64,000 nucleotides of DNA from an uncultured Pseudomonadota bacterium (GTDB lineage: Bacteria; Pseudomonadota; Alphaproteobacteria; Rs-D84), in assembly GCA_947306185.1 (NCBI GenBank), contig CAMZFU010000002.1, positions 2,128 through 66,127 on the forward strand. Reading direction: 5' to 3'. The notes beneath the pieces were generated by a model that worked only from the letters and a program-made list of their open reading frames with translations, searched no databases and was not told the DNA's origin. Of this stretch, positions 7,991 through 15,055 are shown one piece after another. The position numbers and the translations under genes are program-made. Each line of letters begins with the position of its first letter. Position 1 is the stretch's first letter.

Positions 7991-8317
7991 TTATTTTTCA
8001 ACACTCGCGACTGCGTTCTTGCTAACCTCTATCACGACACCTTTGGCGATTTCCATTTCCAATGTTTTATCACCAACCTTTTTCACGGTACCATAAATCC
8101 CGGCGGCCATAATACGGTCACCAACCTTGATAGAATCAACCATCTTTTGATATTCCGCCATACGCCGTTTATTCGGACGCACCATAAAGAAATATATGAT
8201 TACGAATATAATCAAACAATAAAGCAACATTCCACCCCAACTGCCCTGTTGTGCGGCGGCGGGTGCTGTCCCAGTTGCGGTATCAACAACGGTATCTACT
8301 GCTGTAACTTCTTGCAT
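7991..8317 (-). CDS. yajC: preprotein translocase subunit YajC
   Basis: The 108-aa protein has a single TM helix followed by the YajC core (RPNKRRMAEYQKMVDSIKVGDRIMAAGIYGTV). Confidence 0.9.
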   Translation of the reverse strand: MQEVTAVDTVVDTATGTAPAAAQQGSWGGMLLYCLIIFVIIYFFMVRPNKRRMAEYQKMVDSIKVGDRIMAAGIYGTVKKVGDKTLEMEIAKGVVIEVSKNAVASVEK

Positions 8318-8433
8318 TTATTTTCTCCTTTTTATTATTTCTTATGCCCCAAGGGTAGAAAAAAAAACATACAATGTAAAGGAATAAGTGCAAATGATAA
8401 ATACCCATTGTTTAGCGATATTGCAAACAGATT

Positions 8434-9468
8434 TTATGCAACGGCGAAATTTAACCGTGGGGATACAAAATTAGATATTGAATTCGATATATTACCGATA
8501 TTACGGCATAGTTTATTAATCAGATTATACGTGCACGCCCATTTAAGCCACCCATGTGCCGATGCCAATTGGCCGACGGCGTGGTCACTGGTGTCACCAT
8601 AGTATGCGATATTCATTAATCGATGACGTATTTTTTTTACCCCCCGCGGCCGCAACAATACAAATTTTATAAAATGCCGGTAACCAATAATATTAACCCC
8701 ATGCGATACCGGATGCAGAAAATATTTTGATAAAATCAGTTTCAATTTATTACCCAAAAAGACATTTATACGTTGCAGATACCCCCACAAAGCATGTTTA
8801 TCATTACCGAACAAACAGAAATCATCACAATAGCGCAGGTAATCATGACAATGCAAAATATGTTTTACGAACATATCCAATTGATGCAAGTACACATTTC
8901 CCATCCATTGACTGGTCAGGTTTCCGATTGGCAAATTTGTATCACCGCCGACGGACCGCACGATATCATTTAACACCCGGATTAATCGACTATCGCCGAT
9001 TTTTTGTTTTAATATATCCATCATAATATCATGATTAATTGACGGAAAGAATTTTTTTATATCGCATTGCAGGTAATATTTATTTCTGCGTACGAATTGC
9101 ATTACGCGTTTTGATGCGGCATGCAATCCACGGCCGGGGATACACGCATAAGAATCACGAATAAACATCCGTTGCCAAATTGGTCCCAACACATTGATAA
9201 TTGCATGATGAACGATATGGTCGGGATAAAGTGGCAATTCATAGATATCCCGTTTTTTGGGTTCGTATATAGTGAACACGCGATAGTTTGATGTTTTGAA
9301 CGTTCCGTCCATCAGTGATTGGCGCAATTTTTTCAGTAAATTTTCGCTATCCGCCAAGAATTTTTTGGTAGATTTTTTATTTTTCTTGCTGCGCACGGCT
9401 TTTTTTGCGGCCAACCTAAAATTTTCTTCGGAAATAAATTCGTCCCACAAATTTTTGTAACGTTTCAT
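8434..9468 (-). CDS. diversity-generating retroelement reverse transcriptase
   Basis: The 344-aa protein has RT motifs QCDIKKFFPSINH and PGRGLHAA. It carries the DGR-diagnostic IGNLTSQ (nt 8908..8928), the YCDD catalytic box (nt 8821..8832) and a C-terminal HGWLKW..TYNL. It lies about 0.6 kb from a TR/VR pair with adenine-only mismatches. Confidence 0.93.
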   Translation of the reverse strand: MKRYKNLWDEFISEENFRLAAKKAVRSKKNKKSTKKFLADSENLLKKLRQSLMDGTFKTSNYRVFTIYEPKKRDIYELPLYPDHIVHHAIINVLGPIWQRMFIRDSYACIPGRGLHAASKRVMQFVRRNKYYLQCDIKKFFPSINHDIMMDILKQKIGDSRLIRVLNDIVRSVGGDTNLPIGNLTSQWMGNVYLHQLDMFVKHILHCHDYLRYCDDFCLFGNDKHALWGYLQRINVFLGNKLKLILSKYFLHPVSHGVNIIGYRHFIKFVLLRPRGVKKIRHRLMNIAYYGDTSDHAVGQLASAHGWLKWACTYNLINKLCRNIGNISNSISNFVSPRLNFAVA

Positions 9469-9469
9469 T

Positions 9470-9796
9470 TTACGAAAAGGAATAATATTTATCTATTTTT
9501 ACGATTGTTGTTTTGAATGGAATATTTCCTTTGACAGATTTTATTTGGTCCAACAAAACGACACTGCCGGTGAACAGGATACAAACTTCGCCATTAAACA
9601 CGAATTGTAATTGCAAACATTCCGCATTATCATGTTTTTTTGATTGTGTGATTCTAAAATCCACGATAAGTATTTCTTGGTTTAGAATATTATCCAATCT
9701 GCGTTTGGTTCCGGGCAACGGCAATTTATCCCGCGCGAACGCGGAAAATTTTGGGCAACCGTCTTGTTGTAACATATTTATTTCGTCCAAGGTCAT
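9470..9796 (-). CDS. DGR-associated small protein, candidate non-Avd accessory factor
   Basis: This 108-aa ORF lies between the TR and the RT. Its stop is 1 nt before the RT ATG (TAA-A-ATG), suggesting translational coupling. It is near-neutral (14 K/R vs 12 D/E by my count) with a beta-strand-like pattern, and I recognise no family. Confidence 0.6.
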   Translation of the reverse strand: MTLDEINMLQQDGCPKFSAFARDKLPLPGTKRRLDNILNQEILIVDFRITQSKKHDNAECLQLQFVFNGEVCILFTGSVVLLDQIKSVKGNIPFKTTIVKIDKYYSFS

Positions 9797-10058
9797 ATTC
9801 CGGCCCTTTGTTTTTACGATTGGATATCCCGGGCGTTCGCCACGATACAGAAACGGCTACTGACCCAGATATCCCCTGCGTTTTGTGTTTGTCCGACGCA
9901 ATCGGAACGATTACGTGCGGCCGGGCTGTGACATCCCACCTTGATGCAAGGCAGTATAGAAACAGGCATAATTGTGTTACCTGAAAAGTGTTTCATACAC
10001 TTTGTCCTGCAGGTTAGCAAAATTCTGTTTGGTATTCAGAATAACCGCACACCAAGAA
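9797..10058 (-). ncRNA. structured spacer region of the DGR RNA (between TR and accessory ORF)
   Basis: Several hairpins are visible on the minus strand: attctg/cagaat, aaagtgt/acacttt, ccttg/caagg and aatcg-ttc-cgatt with an extended imperfect stem. A ~12-bp GGGATATCTGGG / CCCGGGATATCC helix is also present. The position matches the spacer RNA of known DGRs. Confidence 0.45.
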
Positions 10059-10190
10059 GCGACAGCCCCAAAAACGCCCGACCGGAAGTCGGAGTTGTTG
10101 CGGACGTTGTTACCGCAGTTGTTCGCACAGTTGTCCGCACAATCGGACGACGACGAGTTCGAGTTGTTGAACACCCAGCGGGACACAGCA
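10059..10190 (-). repeat. DGR template repeat (TR)
   Basis: The 132-bp repeat aligns without gaps to 10701..10832. The coding-sense strand carries 23 adenines: ten AAC codons, one GAT and two GAC. It lies next to the RT and is not part of a credible secreted-protein gene. Confidence 0.92.
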
Positions 10191-10338
10191 ACACGACCAG
10201 CGATTCCAACCGTATTCGATACCACAGCCCATTCCTGTGCGTGACACACCGTTACACATTTTGGTGCGTCACACGCGGGAATTGTTCCAAATGCAAATGC
10301 ATTTGACCAAGGGTTCGCCTTTGGTGAAATGCACGGGG

Positions 10339-10612
10339 AGTGGGTAGTTGTTGGTGTAAGTTGTTGGTGTAAGTAAAACCACTCCCCACTAATCACTAAT
10401 CACTTCCACTTTTTCCCGTCATCCTGAACTTGTTTCAGGATGACGGCGTTCATTCTGATACCATTGTCATTCCCAGCGAAGCGTGGGAATCCAGTCAATT
10501 TGTGTTCCGTGCCGCTACCCACAACTTTTTATTCACTGGATTGCCACGGTCGTCCTTACGGACTCCCTCGCAATGACAATTTACACTCCCCACTAACACT
10601 AATCACTAACAC
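10339..10612. mobile_element. palindromic MITE-like dispersed repeat, copy A
   Basis: The 198-bp core (10401..10598) matches 11206..11403 with only 3 mismatches, and the flanks are also similar. Internal perfect 13-bp hairpin at 10416..10446 (ccgtcatcctgaa/ttcaggatgacgg). Further pairings are attccca/tgggaat and cattgtcatt/aatgacaat, and the ends are ttagtg/cactaa-rich and inverted. Confidence 0.6.
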
Positions 10613-10618
10613 TGCCCT

Positions 10619-10639
10619 GGGGGCGGGGTCGCCGCCCCC
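10619..10639 (-). promoter_or_regulatory. GC-only hairpin downstream of VR
   Basis: gggggcgg-ggtcg-ccgccccc forms a perfect 8-bp G/C stem. It lies 55 nt beyond the target-gene stop codon. Confidence 0.45.
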
Positions 10640-10667
10640 AGCCCCCCACCCATTACCGGTTTCCGTA

Positions 10668-10690
10668 CCTGATGTGCGTTGCACATCAGG
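10668..10690 (-). promoter_or_regulatory. hairpin immediately 3' of VR/target stop codon (candidate DGR target-recognition or terminator element)
   Basis: cctgatgtgc-gtt-gcacatcagg forms a perfect 10-bp stem with a 3-nt loop. It starts 4 nt after the stop codon (10694..10696) and no U-tract follows it. Confidence 0.55.
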
Positions 10691-10693
10691 GCA

Positions 10694-11119
10694 TCAATTT
10701 GCGACAGCCCCAAAAACGCCCGACCGGAAGCCGGAGTTGTAGCGGACGTAGTAACCGCAGCCGTTCGCACAGCTGTCCGCACAAGCGGACGACGACGAGA
10801 ACGAGGCGTAGAACACCCAGCGGGACACAGCAGGATGGGTCATTTTGCACCAACATTTAACACCACCCGTTTCGTATTGTTCGGCATTACTGGCCACCGC
10901 GTACGAACCGCCCGTGTCATTACACACCGCGACACCCGACACATTCCCGTACGGAAACACCGTTGTCCACGTCATATTTGCGGCATTATATGTATATGAC
11001 GTACCTTCGATATACGGGTCCAACACCACCGTGACATAATCAGATGCACTGCACATCACCGATGCAGATGCCGCCCCGGCCATCATCATCACAACAATTG
11101 ATACAATACATTTTTTCAT
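10694..11119 (-). CDS. DGR target: small secreted Cys-rich variable protein
   Basis: The 141-aa protein has a signal peptide (MKKCIVSIVVMMMAGAASASV). Its C-terminal 44 codons are the VR (…AVSRWVFYASFSSSSACADSCANGCGYYVRYNSGFRSGVFGAVAN*). An RBS-like aaaggaaag lies upstream. Confidence 0.9.
   Translation of the reverse strand: MKKCIVSIVVMMMAGAASASVMCSASDYVTVVLDPYIEGTSYTYNAANMTWTTVFPYGNVSGVAVCNDTGGSYAVASNAEQYETGGVKCWCKMTHPAVSRWVFYASFSSSSACADSCANGCGYYVRYNSGFRSGVFGAVAN
10701..10832 (-). repeat. DGR variable repeat (VR)
   Basis: The 132-bp repeat matches the TR at 119 of 132 positions. All 13 mismatches fall at TR adenines (plus-strand T). It ends 4 nt before the target stop codon. Confidence 0.92.
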
Positions 11120-11151
11120 ACTTTCTTTCCTTTGTTTTAGTGGTTAGTGGT

Positions 11152-11415
11152 AGTGGGTAGTTGTTAGTGTAAGTTGTTAATGAAAGTAAAACCACTAACA
11201 CTAATCACTTCCACTTTTTCCCGTCATCCTGAACTTGTTTCAGAATTCCGGCGTTCATTCTGATACCATTGTCATTCCCAGCGAAGCGTGGGAATCCAGT
11301 CAATTTGTGTTCCGTGCCGCTACCCACAACTTTTTATTCACTGGATTGCCACGGTCGTCCTTACGGACTCCCTCGCAATGACAATTTACACTCCCCACTA
11401 ACAACTAACACCAAC
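11152..11415. mobile_element. palindromic MITE-like dispersed repeat, copy B
   Basis: This is a direct repeat of copy A. The 198-bp core at 11206..11403 differs at 3 positions, all inside the 13-bp hairpin, which is degenerate here. Confidence 0.6.
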
Positions 11416-11420
11416 CTATC

Positions 11421-11562
11421 CCATCTGCCCGGGGGGCCAACCGTATTTTTTGCGGCCGGGACGTTTTTCCCCTTGTCGAAGGGGGGGAAACCCCGTTTTA
11501 CCGGGTAGGAATATGGAAGTACGCCCCGAAATACGGTGCAACAATTCCCCCCGGGCAGATGG
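11421..11562. repeat. long inverted repeat / large stem-loop downstream of the paralog gene
   Basis: A perfect 16-bp IR (ccatctgcccgggggg at 11421..11436, ccccccgggcagatgg at 11547..11562) is present. A 9-bp helix accgtattt/aaatacggt (11440..11448 with 11529..11537) extends it, and inner G/C-run hairpins are visible. Confidence 0.5.
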
Positions 11563-11573
11563 GACGGCGTGTT

Positions 11574-12008
11574 TTACCACACCGATTCCAATACCGCCGT
11601 ACGAAACGTCGTACTACTTTGCACCGCCGTTCCGCACGCCAATGTGCATCCCGATGCACATGACGATGCATCAGAATACGTATCTAAAAACACCCAATAC
11701 GACGACATCGGGGTTTGCATCGCACACCAACAATACGGACCTTCGTCCGCCGCAACGGTATATAATGCCGTGTTAACCGTGTTCGCCGTCCCGGTAATCT
11801 CGTTACAGGCCGCATCGCCCGTTATCGTGTAATTTGCAAATGTCGCCGACCATTTCTTGTCCGTGGCATTTGTTACCGATGCAGATGTGCCGTTGGTGGA
11901 TTTGCTGATTGATGCAATATATGTGTTCTTGTGTTTGCACATTGTCTGCGCGGATGCGCATGTAACCGCACATATTCCAATCAAACTTGTAATCATTATT
12001 CTTTTCAT
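11574..12008 (-). CDS. secreted Cys-rich protein, non-diversified paralog of the DGR target
   Basis: I place the start at the internal ATG 12008 (MKRIMITSLIGICAVTCASAQT signal peptide, RBS agggaa), giving 144 aa. It shares the scaffold MC..W..F....CN....CWC.M.P..S.WVF...C A..C...CG..V.....FR with the target. It has no DNA-level match to the TR. Confidence 0.8.
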   Translation of the reverse strand: MKRIMITSLIGICAVTCASAQTMCKHKNTYIASISKSTNGTSASVTNATDKKWSATFANYTITGDAACNEITGTANTVNTALYTVAADEGPYCWCAMQTPMSSYWVFLDTYSDASSCASGCTLACGTAVQSSTTFRTAVLESVW

Positions 12009-12025
12009 CTTGTTGTTCCCTTGGT

Positions 12026-12898
12026 TTATTTTGTTGTGTGATATATCGTCCCGTCGGGGCTTATAAGATTCACCGCACCAGGTGCATTGCCAGATGCCAA
12101 ATTGATATAGCATACGGCCGTAGGTGCCTGGACCCCCAATGCATGTTCTGTGGTTTTTTGTGCATATACCGGAAATGTATATGACCCAACATGCAATTTG
12201 GTGATTCCCCCACCACATAAGGGCACACATTGTCCGCCCCATGTTAATGATTCGCCTGTATCACAAAATGCCGTGCAAAAATCTTCGCTTTGGCGTTCGT
12301 CGCAATCAATCGCGTCAGATGCCCGAACGTAATTCGTACCGCACGTGCCCCCCGATGTGGGAACAAATGTCGTACCCGCACCCGATACATAATTAATCCA
12401 ACCCGTCGGACATTTCGTATTATCATTTGCCGTACAGGTACCATTATTCATATACTCGTTCGTGCCACACAACGTTGGTGCAGAATTCAATATCCCGCCC
12501 GTCGATATAACATACGACCCCGTCGGTACATTAAATAACGCCGTACCATTCCAACAATGCCCATTATTGTCTATGCCACCAACCGTCGTGGACGCGGTTG
12601 TTACCTCGAAATACCCGCTGTCGCAACGACCACGCGATAACGATGTACATGTGTCATCACTCATATATTCGTTCGTGCCACATAACGTAACTTCGTCTTG
12701 TAACAACATCCCGTTAAAGTATGCATTTAAATGTGACGGTGAATCATAAACCGCATAACCTGATGGGCAATGCCCCGATGTATCAATTGCGACAAATGTT
12801 GTTGTTCCACCCACGGTAACTGTATCCACTGGACACGTAACACCAAATGCCGCATGTCCAAAAAATACAAATAAAAATATAATATTTAATTTTCTCAT
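12026..12898 (-). CDS. secreted Cys-rich repeat protein
   Basis: The 290-aa protein has a signal peptide (MRKLNIIFLFVFFGHAAFG). It contains two ~70-aa internal repeats, each ending in TLCGTNEYM(S/N)xxTCT. The protein is G/T/C-rich and I recognise no family. Confidence 0.8.
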   Translation of the reverse strand: MRKLNIIFLFVFFGHAAFGVTCPVDTVTVGGTTTFVAIDTSGHCPSGYAVYDSPSHLNAYFNGMLLQDEVTLCGTNEYMSDDTCTSLSRGRCDSGYFEVTTASTTVGGIDNNGHCWNGTALFNVPTGSYVISTGGILNSAPTLCGTNEYMNNGTCTANDNTKCPTGWINYVSGAGTTFVPTSGGTCGTNYVRASDAIDCDERQSEDFCTAFCDTGESLTWGGQCVPLCGGGITKLHVGSYTFPVYAQKTTEHALGVQAPTAVCYINLASGNAPGAVNLISPDGTIYHTTK

Positions 12899-12932
12899 TT
12901 CCCCCGAATCCTATTTTTGTGTGCAACATACA

Positions 12933-12961
12933 CAAAAAACCGCCGATAAGGATCTGGCGGT
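12933..12961 (-). promoter_or_regulatory. terminator-like hairpin with U-tract in the leader of the Cys-rich gene (possible attenuator)
   Basis: On the minus strand the sequence reads accgcc-agatccttatc-ggcggt followed by tttttt. It lies 35-60 nt upstream of the ATG at 12898. The stem shares 2 nt with an alternative 9-bp helix (12960..12968 with 13022..13030). Confidence 0.4.
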
Positions 12962-13049
12962 CGGGGCGTTCGTAAATCACATAAAGCAATGATTCCTGGG
13001 CCTTTATATATACACCTCAGGCGCCCCGACTACGCGGGGACTTTTGCTT

Positions 13050-13116
13050 TTACGACACAAAATATCGAAAATTACGGATTACGACATATGTGCCGGCTTT
13101 ATGTGGGCTTACGACA
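13050..13116. promoter_or_regulatory. three direct TTACGACA repeats spaced 29-30 bp (candidate regulator binding sites)
   Basis: TTACGACA occurs at 13050, 13079 and 13109, with a related TTACGGA at 13072. The sites sit in the 400-bp non-coding gap upstream of 12026..12898. Confidence 0.35.
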
Positions 13117-13254
13117 GCCCAGAATGCAGATTCCCATCTGATTCGGTATGATTGTAAAAGAATTGCGATGTTATTGCAAGACATTTTCATGTATGTATTG
13201 TATCAAGATGGGCTACTAATACTGAACAGGAACAAAAGCGGGTTTATACACCGT

Positions 13255-13284
13255 AAAAAAAAATCGGATGCAAGAGCATCCGAT
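13255..13284 (-). terminator. intrinsic terminator of mutL
   Basis: On the minus strand the sequence reads atcggatgc-tctt-gcatccgat followed by a T9 run. It begins 23 nt after the mutL stop. Confidence 0.75.
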
Positions 13285-13306
13285 ACACTAAATCAATAAT
13301 ATTATT

Positions 13307-15055
13307 CTATGCGCGTTCAAACCAACTATCAACCTCGGTCAATGGGATAAATTTATACACCGGACGGCCGTGATTACATTCGCCCCCATGTTCTGTTTTT
13401 TCTATATCACGCAACAGCGCATCCATTTGTTCATAGTTCAATTTTTGCCCTGCACGCACCGAATGATGACACGCGTGATTTGCCAATTTCAAATGCAATT
13501 TTTCTTTCATAATGCTGGAATGACCGTACTCACGAACCTCGTCCGCGATATCATGCAATGCCGCCGGCCAATCCATATCCCAATCGGATGGCTTTTCGAA
13601 AATTGCAATTGCATCATCACCAAAAGAATCTATTACCAAACCACTTTCGCGCAATTCTTCAACTATTGTTAATACCGCATTTATATCTTCATTGCGCAGA
13701 TGAACAACTATCGGTGTCAACAATGGTTGAACCTTTATCGTATGGTTGCGCATTTTTTCATATGTTATGCGTTCATGGGCCGCATGCTGATCAATAACGA
13801 CCAACGAATCAGCCGTTGCGGCAATTATATATTTATTTGCAATCTGGCCAACAACGCGTCCCAATGGTTGTATATTAAATACGTTCTCTACAGATTCTAG
13901 ACTTGATGATTTCGGGACTTCATTTTTTGAATTTGTTTGTGTACAAAAAAGTTCCTGTTGACCACTGGATGGTTGCCGAACGACACCTGTATACGTTGAG
14001 AAATGCGGTCTTGATACGATTGGACCAGTAAAAGACATTTTATCATCATGCGCAACCGGCGCAAGCGAAACATTATTTTGATTCATTGTTTGCGCCAACA
14101 CATCACGCAACGATTTAATTATAAATGAACGAACGTGTGTCGGTTCCAAGAAATGAACATCATTTTTCGTTGGCGAAACATTTACATCAACGTGTTCTGG
14201 TGGCAATGTTAAATACAATACACAAAGAGGAAATTCACGGGCGTGCATAACATCCATATATGCCGCACGCAATGCACCAACCAAAACCTTGTCCTTGACT
14301 GGACGCCCATTTACAAATAAATATTGATCCACCGATGATGCCCGTCGTAACGTCGGATCAGATATATACCCCGTAAGTTTCATACCCGTTGTTGAACCCG
14401 ACGTTGCATCGACCGCGTGCATACGTCCAATAACATCATCGCCCATAACTGCGGCGATTCGTTCCATTAACGGTTGGTCTTTTGGAAAGCGCCATTTATT
14501 ATTAAGTATAAAGCCGACATCGCCCCTTGCCATCGCAAGACGTTTTACAACATCCAATACCGCCATCATTTCGGCCCTATCGGAACGCAAAAATTTTAAC
14601 CGCGCCGGTGTTTTCGCAAACAAATTCTGTACACGAATGCGTGTACCACTTTGCCAATCGGACGGTCTGATATCCCCGGTGTTACAATCTAAATGCCACC
14701 CGTTAGAATCAGTACCATTGCATGTATCAATTTCCATATCGGATACAGATGCGATTGACGGTAACGCCTCGCCCCGGAACCCCATAAAATTAATATGCAT
14801 TAAATTATCATCGGGCAATTTTGACGTGGCATGTCGCATAATGGAATTAGCCAGGTCTTCTTTATTCATACCTGAACCATTATCAACCACATTTATTAAT
14901 GTTCGCCCACCATCAACAACATCTATAATTATCTGGTCGGCACCGGCATCTAATGCGTTTTCCACGGTTTCCTTGACAACACTGGCACCGTGTTCCACCA
15001 CTTCGCCGGCGGCAATTTGGTTAACAAGGTAATCTGGCAATAATCTTACCGACAC
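13307..15055 (-). CDS. mutL: DNA mismatch repair protein MutL
   Basis: The N-terminal GHKL ATPase motifs are present (LVNQIAAGEVVEHGASVVKETVENALDAG). The 582-aa protein also has a C-terminal dimerisation/endonuclease domain. Confidence 0.95.
   Translation of the reverse strand: MSVRLLPDYLVNQIAAGEVVEHGASVVKETVENALDAGADQIIIDVVDGGRTLINVVDNGSGMNKEDLANSIMRHATSKLPDDNLMHINFMGFRGEALPSIASVSDMEIDTCNGTDSNGWHLDCNTGDIRPSDWQSGTRIRVQNLFAKTPARLKFLRSDRAEMMAVLDVVKRLAMARGDVGFILNNKWRFPKDQPLMERIAAVMGDDVIGRMHAVDATSGSTTGMKLTGYISDPTLRRASSVDQYLFVNGRPVKDKVLVGALRAAYMDVMHAREFPLCVLYLTLPPEHVDVNVSPTKNDVHFLEPTHVRSFIIKSLRDVLAQTMNQNNVSLAPVAHDDKMSFTGPIVSRPHFSTYTGVVRQPSSGQQELFCTQTNSKNEVPKSSSLESVENVFNIQPLGRVVGQIANKYIIAATADSLVVIDQHAAHERITYEKMRNHTIKVQPLLTPIVVHLRNEDINAVLTIVEELRESGLVIDSFGDDAIAIFEKPSDWDMDWPAALHDIADEVREYGHSSIMKEKLHLKLANHACHHSVRAGQKLNYEQMDALLRDIEKTEHGGECNHGRPVYKFIPLTEVDSWFERA

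Follow-up and report, generated by a model that had tools for sequence, protein, structure and literature searches.

A chromosomal diversity-generating retroelement of Candidatus Enterousia and a reverse transcriptase-linked accessory protein family distinct from Avd

The 64,000-nucleotide (nt) stretch of contig CAMZFU010000002.1 analysed here in full (hereafter, the window) comes from a tiny-genome gut alphaproteobacterium, Candidatus Enterousia (order Rs-D84), and carries a chromosomal diversity-generating retroelement (DGR) which, in our judgement, is very likely active at present or was so until recently, and in which the partner of the reverse transcriptase (RT) is not Avd but a 108-amino-acid (aa) accessory protein, designated ACC in this report. 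What is new is the recognition of ACC as an accessory class tied to DGR RTs, more than this locus alone. Nearly all that is known of the DGR mechanism was learned in a single system, where neither priming nor adenine mutagenesis can do without the Avd pentamer; about one quarter of catalogued DGRs are without Avd. The ACC family is a concrete candidate for the Avd replacement in part of the DGRs that lack Avd or have an extended RT.

The element forms part of a block of about 5 kb on the minus strand, bounded by mutL (13307-15055) on one side and by yajC-secD-secF (8317 down to 5544) on the other; Pfam matches confirm YajC, SecD and SecF on one flank and MutL, GreA and LptF/G on the other. Read along the minus strand, on which all the features of the block listed here lie, the block consists of a 290-aa open reading frame (ORF; 12026..12898), a 144-aa ORF (11574..12008), the 141-aa target gene (10694..11119) with its 132-bp variable repeat (VR, 10701..10832), the 132-nt template repeat (TR, 10059..10190), a 262-nt structured spacer between TR and ACC (9797..10058), the ACC gene (9470..9796) and the gene for a 344-aa RT (8434..9468). 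The first-pass annotation had proposed a complete chromosomal DGR lodged between yajC-secDF and mutL, and each feature of the cassette was indeed found at the position it had been given. The same annotation saw no flanking phage genes, and none was found within about 8 kb of the cassette; it also held that the layout departs from the canonical target-avd-TR-RT order, and the order in the window is target-TR-ACC-RT.

By profile scores and motifs, the RT is a DGR-class RT, as had been claimed. Its best relative in the PDB is the Bordetella bRT (8ub7_A, E 5.9e-46, residues 2-319, 33% identity), while group II (LtrA) and retron-type RTs reached E 1e-16 or weaker in the same search; it matches the RT family phrog_1423 (E 3.6e-97) and Pfam RVT_1, and carries the motifs IGNLTSQ and YCDD. 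A retron, a group II intron and a defence RT (DRT) were each considered and rejected, with NCBIfam scores far under the curated cut-offs: 103 bits against 300 for group_II_RT_mat, 58 against 235 for retron St85, and also far below the cut-off for the DRTs. No Rfam family was found in the window, either at the gathering threshold over its whole length or at an E-value threshold on positions 9700-10750.

The TR and VR align without gaps over 132 nt and show 13 mismatches, all 13 of them at TR adenines, which bears out the initial reading that the two repeats differ nowhere else; the probability that 13 random positions would all hit the 23 adenines of TR is 3.6e-12. In the frame of the target, all 23 adenines occupy codon position 1 or 2 and belong to 10 AAC and three GAY codons, these 13 codons being the only changeable ones, with about 3.7e13 reachable protein variants. 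Because the TR adenines sit in AAY/GAY codons, stop codons cannot arise by mutagenesis. Over its final 29 nt the repeat is GC-rich, contains no A and reads the same in TR (10059..10087, minus strand) and in VR (10701-10729, minus strand), and homology ends abruptly after ...GCTGTCGC. A hairpin with a 10-bp stem and a 3-nt AAC loop (10668..10690, minus strand), 3′ of the target stop codon, begins 10 nt past this end and is present 3′ of VR only; it is also kept in the sister genome described below, and analogous hairpins are found 3′ of VR in several related loci. As judged from sequence, this boundary, with its candidate initiation of mutagenic homing site (IMH-like in VR, IMH*-like in TR), and the adjoining hairpin fit the homing signals of DGRs. 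A second hairpin with a GC-rich 10-bp stem (CTGGGGGCGG/CCGCCCCCAG; 10617..10641, minus strand) is also located 3′ of the target stop codon. In addition, the A-free 3′ end of both repeats contains a small stem-loop with a T-run after it (TCCGRCTTCCGGTCGGG CGTTTTTGGG), at 10093-10077 in TR and 10735-10719 in VR; it is marked as terminator-like in our scan, and might matter for RNA 3′-end formation or for priming.

The stop codon of ACC lies 1 nt before the ATG of the RT gene, and the two are probably co-translated. A search with the RT yielded 31 related loci, at 57-76% identity, in uncultured Candidatus Enterousia and in related alphaproteobacterial metagenome-assembled genomes from gut and rumen; ACC is present in 30 of the 31, at 52-77% identity, and mostly abuts the RT start. 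A profile search extended the family to 809 cluster representatives (50% identity) at E<=1e-3, with 311 at E<=1e-10, nearly all of them 95-110 aa long. Three longer profile matches (P0173, P0256 and P0248) have ACC fused to the C-terminus of an RT with the motif IGNYxSQ. Eight distant members were looked up in their genomic surroundings, and all eight lie beside an RVT_1 RT: in seven, the RT precedes ACC with overlapping ORFs, several of these being on phage contigs with Mtd-like targets, and in the remaining one, whose contig bears T4-like phage genes, the order is target-ACC-TR-RT. The Mtd-like targets of these other ACC-type DGRs carry PF21916 mtd_2nd. A tblastn search of phage records returned exactly two ACC matches, in ANMV-1 and in a Methanosarcinales virus, each of them the ORF directly after the RT. 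An A-biased TR/VR pair was detected in all six distant loci scanned for repeats (L037-L042), and [IL]GNxxSQ is present in all RTs checked for the motif, namely those of the window, two Enterousia loci, L037-L042 and two fusion proteins. Overall, linkage or fusion to a DGR-type RT was observed in every locus examined, amounting to 41 loci and virus records together, plus the three fusion proteins. Two further family members have unusual domain compositions: in P0225 (150 aa), an ACC domain follows immediately on an RT-like N-terminal segment (MKRLGNIYD...), and in P0190 (233 aa), the N-terminus is acidic and is followed by two ACC domains in tandem.

We sought to place ACC among known DGR accessory proteins. 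That the accessory ORF does not look like Avd had been remarked from the start, and identity with Avd was rejected here: hhalign comparison of a profile of 47 diverse ACC relatives with the Avd of Bordetella phage BPP-1 gave a probability of 0.3%, and the predicted fold of ACC is beta-rich as opposed to a helical bundle of the PF05635-like type. The solved structure of Avd is a helical barrel. No Avd-like ORF was found in the 64-kb window by tblastn and phmmer, and no Avd Pfam matches are on record for the neighbouring genes of the distant ACC loci. Recognised accessory classes are Avd, HRDC, MSL and CH1 (PMC5758913, PMC10053308). HRDC (PF00570) and MSL (MutS_I, PF01624) were rejected on the grounds that neither ACC nor the 47 relatives have a Pfam match, while CH1, at 160-169 aa and an isoelectric point (pI) of 4.7, is set apart by description from ACC, which is 95-110 aa long and mostly basic; Bbp4, encoded by the small ORF that follows brt in BPP-1, was negative in hhalign as a relative of ACC. 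The ACC of the window (pI 8.5) has no match in Pfam, NCBIfam or PDB sequences, and the 47 relatives have none in Pfam or NCBIfam; 17 of the 47 match phrog_19665, for which no function is known. No published description of the family was found in the searchable literature, the minor candidates PAG1-4 (Wu et al. 2018) lying outside the comparison. The proposal that the locus represents an undescribed DGR variant is upheld, in the refined form that ACC is a large unannotated family linked to DGR RTs and not a local oddity.

An AlphaFold2 (AF2) model of ACC, built with 42 homologues, is confident (pLDDT 90) and consists of short N-terminal helices followed by strand-strand-strand-helix-strand-strand, so that the fold is predicted to be beta-rich, with a topology like that of the oligonucleotide/oligosaccharide-binding (OB) fold. 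When this model was compared with BFVD by Foldseek, the best matches were viral proteins with an RT domain (E 9e-7 and 2e-6), the fold being there a portion of the RT polypeptide, and phage single-strand-binding proteins (SSBs) came next, with weak scores (E 2e-3 to 1.5e-2). We infer that ACC may be an obligatory nucleic-acid-binding cofactor of the RT which fills the role of Avd.

The fusions with RT raise the question of whether ACC is a separate cofactor at all. It could instead be a detached C-terminal domain of a split RT and, as such, a part of the polymerase rather than an independent protein in the manner of Avd. The in-frame fusions P0173, P0256 and P0248 agree with this view, as does the position of ACC, which directly follows or overlaps the RT 3′ end in seven of the eight distant loci and in both virus records; moreover, about 20% of DGR RTs possess unexplained C-terminal extensions (PMC5758913), some of which, as the fusions suggest, ACC may account for. 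In Enterousia, however, the ACC gene is upstream of the RT, one phage has it before TR, in the classical avd position, and in one related locus (L020) it is on the opposite strand. Since ACC is found in several arrangements relative to the RT, it appears to work in trans, and we consider a split RT unlikely, although by no means far-fetched; this alternative largely overlaps the explanation of ACC as a cofactor in the role of Avd, differing only in how the role is described. It is highly improbable that ACC is an unrelated passenger near RTs, such as a phage SSB: the weak structural likeness to phage SSBs and the many family members on phage contigs point in that direction, but they are outweighed by adjacency to an RT in 30 of 31, eight of eight and two of two loci, spanning bacteria, phages and archaeal viruses and three gene orders, by the existence of RT fusions, and by ACC start or stop codons which overlap or abut those of the RT.

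Comparison with the DGR of BPP-1 (mtd-avd-TR-brt) shows an RT of the same family, with IGxxxSQ/YxDD motifs in both. The two elements also share TR and VR copies some 130 nt long, with the VR at the 3′ end of the target and AAY codons that differ only at adenines; in both, the repeat closes with a GC-rich homology free of A, a hairpin comes next, and a structured spacer RNA lies 3′ of TR. In contrast to BPP-1, the window has no detectable Avd, and an unrelated 108-aa protein, predicted to be beta-rich, is encoded between spacer and RT; its spacer measures 262 nt as opposed to about 144 nt (by annotated coordinates), with no sequence likeness detected between the two; its Cys-rich target of 141 aa has an N-terminus like a signal peptide, whereas that of BPP-1 is a tail fibre with a C-type lectin (CLec) fold; and it is located in a chromosome and not in a phage. 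As far as sequence reveals, the window DGR otherwise operates like that of Bordetella; it departs from it in its accessory protein, which is the best supported of the differences, in the size and structure of its spacer RNA and, tentatively, in its target scaffold.

The two archaeal virus records, ANMV-1 (PMC4372165) and the Methanosarcinales virus (BK063673), share with the window an ACC homologue (37-45% identity, E down to 2e-18), placed directly after a DGR RT with the motif xGNYTSQ, as well as an A-biased TR/VR pair; they differ from it in the order target-TR-RT-ACC, in their tail-fibre or Mtd-like targets, and in their viral context. The ANMV-1 homologue, AJP62065.1, is annotated as a hypothetical protein, and no mention of it was found in the text of the paper (PMC4372165). 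The sole annotated ORF between target and RT in ANMV-1 (L037, KP703175) is AJP62063.1 (2744-2938), which overlaps the detected TR (2729-2846); as the small ORFs in this interval overlap TRs in ANMV-1, L039 and L040 alike, they may not be genes. Architecture B3 of Wu et al. 2018 (PMC5758913), TR-(avd)-RT, has the TR-accessory-RT order in common with the window, but its avd is on the reverse strand, unlike the ACC of the window. The accessory classes of the same authors resemble ACC in being small accessory ORFs conserved within an RT lineage.

The spacer between TR and ACC, 228-286 nt in length, is conserved across 16 aligned loci. It had been described beforehand as 262 nt long and structured; the length is exact, and the structure is now backed by covariation. 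RNAalifold predicts 38 pairs in six helices, with a long-range helix closing a domain of two hairpins and a short helix, and an extended hairpin on the 3′ side. In minus-strand coordinates the helices are H1, 10013-10009/9879-9875; H2, 10003-9997/9991-9985; H3, 9983-9977/9969-9963; H4, 9938-9935/9925-9922; H5, 9874-9863/9834-9822; and H6, 9857-9855/9841-9839. In the 16-locus alignment, 95.8% of cells are paired, and compensatory changes were seen in 17 of the 38 pairs, as compared to 8.5+/-1.6 in shuffled alignments, none of which reached this value in 500 trials, and to 4-5 in slid controls. Each of 26 loci contains a single copy of the motif CCTGNNGGACARAG. Judging by this covariation, the spacer is a structured RNA. 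In Bordetella, the spacer supplies the priming site and the binding platform for RT-Avd; by analogy, that of the window is probably an RNA handle for RT-ACC.

The target was initially characterized as a tiny secreted Cys-rich protein with a C-terminal VR, a description which agrees with its length of 141 aa, with a VR made up of the last 44 codons, and with a signal-peptide-like N-terminus ending in an AxA motif. It belongs to a family of 62 homologue clusters, all unannotated, and has seven Cys residues past the predicted signal-peptide cleavage site, six of which are invariant or nearly so across the family. There is no meaningful NCBIfam or PDB sequence match. Of five AF2 models one was confident; in it, a beta-sheet (41-106) is followed by helices (110-135) bearing most of the VR. 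Cys113, Cys117 and Cys121 follow an i, i+4, i+8 spacing, and the variable codons 112, 115/116, 119/120, 123/124 and 127/128 fall between them, so that the modelled VR helix may tentatively be viewed as having one stapled and one hypervariable face. The target could instead be read as a very divergent minimal variable protein of the CLec fold, with nothing new on the target side: most DGR targets are of this fold (PMC5006420), other ACC-type DGRs diversify Mtd-like targets with PF21916 mtd_2nd, and confidence was reached in just one of the five models. We find this rather doubtful, given that the target has no Pfam match even at E<=1, that Foldseek comparison of the single confident model of five with the PDB returned no CLec or immunoglobulin structure (best E 0.86), and that the VR in this model resides in helices packed on a beta-sheet, with Cys113/117/121 between the variable positions. 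In other species, the VR domain is found inside larger multi-domain proteins rich in Cys, such as one of 459 aa in L003.

The 144-aa protein encoded upstream is a non-diversified paralogue, about 30% identical to the target in alignment and sharing with it the motif CWC...WVF...C..C...C; it was rejected as a second VR target, its DNA having no match to TR. The paralogue and the 290-aa protein, the latter encoded by the first gene of the block, correspond to the two additional secreted Cys-rich genes of the first-pass annotation, and both indeed have signal-peptide-like N-termini and many Cys; searches of Pfam, NCBIfam and PDB sequences returned nothing meaningful for either. A paralogue is also found beside the target in L010, L011, L013, L018, L022, L023 and L028, and the 290-aa protein is encoded upstream of paralogue and target in L010, L011, L013, L018, L022 and L023. 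The three proteins probably act together. Because it is encoded with two related Cys-rich signal-peptide-like proteins, the target probably serves a partner-dependent bacterium as a ligand-binding protein of its surface or periplasm; such a function for the three proteins is suggested by their signal-peptide-like N-termini, their Cys content and the targeting by the DGR.

To see how the VR has changed in nature, we made use of a sister genome (L032-L036) having the DGR at the same mutL|yajC site, which was compared with the window at the DNA level. Its TR is identical (132/132), and its VR shows 16 differences, 16 out of 16 at TR adenines (P 1.6e-15), while the rest of the 426-nt target gene shows two differences only. 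Similarly, seven near-identical target alleles, retrieved from other assemblies through an exact-protein index, are invariant over residues 21-103 and vary solely at the 13 codons templated by TR adenines. An own A-biased TR/VR pair is present in 20 of the 31 related loci. The earlier suggestion had been to map reads and ask whether VR polymorphism follows the TR adenines; with assemblies used instead of reads, polymorphism is confined to the adenine-templated positions. As read from these alignments, the element is currently or recently active in nature. The idea that the cassette is a decayed, inactive DGR whose VR differs between strains through ordinary diversifying selection or recombination can draw on the presence of the same VR allele in several samples, but it is refuted for the recent past, and we give it almost no credence, in view of the 16/16 differences between genomes and 13/13 between TR and VR on TR adenines, the same TR in both genomes, the intact state of all ORFs, and the identity of about 99% over the rest of the block.

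By analogy with the Bordetella DGR, transcription of the minus strand would give an RNA holding TR and the 262-nt structured spacer; the RT would copy TR into cDNA, misincorporating opposite the 23 template adenines; and the cDNA would replace VR at the target 3′ end, guided by the A-free 29-nt homology and the downstream hairpin. In the role of Avd, ACC would keep the nascent cDNA, or else the spacer/TR RNA, in place on the RT, and may correspond to part of the unexplained C-terminal extensions present on about 20% of DGR RTs. Several points should be weighed on the other side. Both the need for ACC and its nucleic-acid binding are proposed from sequence and predicted fold, and the top Foldseek matches of ACC in the PDB, which include SSB, RPA, Dna2-OB and HIN domains, are weak and not significant (best E 0.08). 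The pI of the family is mostly 8-9.3, but one member has a pI of 5.4, and a basic charge is therefore not universal in the family. Avd is poorly conserved, and a very divergent one may remain elsewhere in the genome; one of the PAG1-4 of Wu et al. 2018 might be the ACC family. The VR variation is between assemblies and not within one population, and eight contigs from several samples share the P0098 allele without any change, indicating that VR turnover is not so fast that every sample differs, and that its rate may be low.

A broader proposition, which we advance tentatively and would not yet call probable, is that ACC marks a major unrecognised class of DGRs, in which an OB-like nucleic-acid-binding protein, either free or fused to the RT, replaces Avd as its essential partner and a distinct, longer spacer RNA serves as platform, the Enterousia target being a disulfide-stapled helix on a small beta-sheet, and as such a new scaffold that is neither of the CLec nor of the immunoglobulin fold. 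For annotators, ACC may be of use as a new DGR marker gene, and for protein engineers, ACC and its RT would constitute a second, compact RT-cofactor pair.

The comparison with the sister genome also bears on the history of the whole island (8300..13309, minus strand), which is about 99% identical between the two genomes. Nucleotide identity to L032 amounts to 79.6% for mutL, 86.2% for greA, 84.4% for yajC and 85.6% for secD, but to 99.0% for the 290-aa gene, 98.9% for the paralogue, 98.2% for ACC, 99.2% for the RT and 259/262 for the spacer; the value for the target, 95.8%, is lowered by the VR. Identity jumps sharply from about 85% to about 100%, and does so at the mutL stop codon on one side and about 17 nt into yajC on the other, indicating that the island and its intergenic control regions were exchanged recently between species-level lineages, most likely by homologous recombination in the conserved flanks. 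None of yajC, secD and mutL was found within 6 kb of the DGR in any of the 31 loci of related species, so that the DGR does not keep one insertion site throughout the genus.

The arrangement of the cassette itself varies among the related loci. The target is downstream of the RT and on the opposite strand in L020, L021 and L025; ACC is on the opposite strand in L020; the target lies between ACC and RT in L013; and in L024 one TR serves two VRs. ACC is frameshifted in L017, and L030 contains an RT fragment only.

DGRs were reportedly described by Paul et al. in 2017 in Candidate Phyla Radiation (CPR) bacteria and DPANN archaea. As in the window, the hosts of those DGRs are said to have reduced genomes of less than 1 Mb and to be probably partner-dependent, with a surface or secreted protein being diversified; the window differs from them in its host, an animal-gut alphaproteobacterium, in its accessory protein and in its target family. 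Enterousia genomes are smaller than 1 Mb, and the bacteria are thought to depend on partners (PMC12306168). The window and its sister genome would be a case of gut alphaproteobacteria with sub-megabase genomes that retain an active DGR and exchange it as an island of 5 kb. The Enterousia DGR would extend to Proteobacteria the CPR/DPANN pattern, that is, massive diversification of surface proteins in partner-dependent cells, and contact with the partner would likely be made through the family of small Cys-rich proteins.

A palindromic repeat of about 270 bp had been listed in the gene order of the retroelement. Its presence was confirmed, but it proved to be a strain-specific insertion and not a component of the DGR. 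There are only two copies in the 64-kb window, both inside the island and with cores 96% identical: copy 1 (10394..10610) lies between target and TR, and copy 2 (11199..11415) between paralogue and target, neither being assigned to a strand. Since both are absent from the otherwise about 99% identical island of the sister genome (L032-L036), the repeat is best regarded as a recent insertion resembling a miniature inverted-repeat transposable element. In their extended form (10330-10660 and 11149-11415), the copies contain nested hairpins, e.g., CCGTCATCCTGAAC...GTTCAGGATGACGG, and sit in GTTAGTG-rich spacers.

Consensus scans for promoters and terminators gave nothing above chance. Just 3′ of the paralogue stop codon there is a perfect 18-bp inverted repeat (11419-11436 / 11547-11564; TCCCATCTGCCCGGGGGG / CCCCCCGGGCAGATGGGA) with 110 nt between its arms, which the sister genome has as well; it could act as a structured RNA or as a long terminator, or else be left over from some other element. 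The G+C content inside the island, over positions 9500-12500, is uneven, with RT and ACC at about 38-39%, TR, VR and target at 51-53%, the two upstream Cys-rich genes at about 48%, and the flanks at 40-44%.

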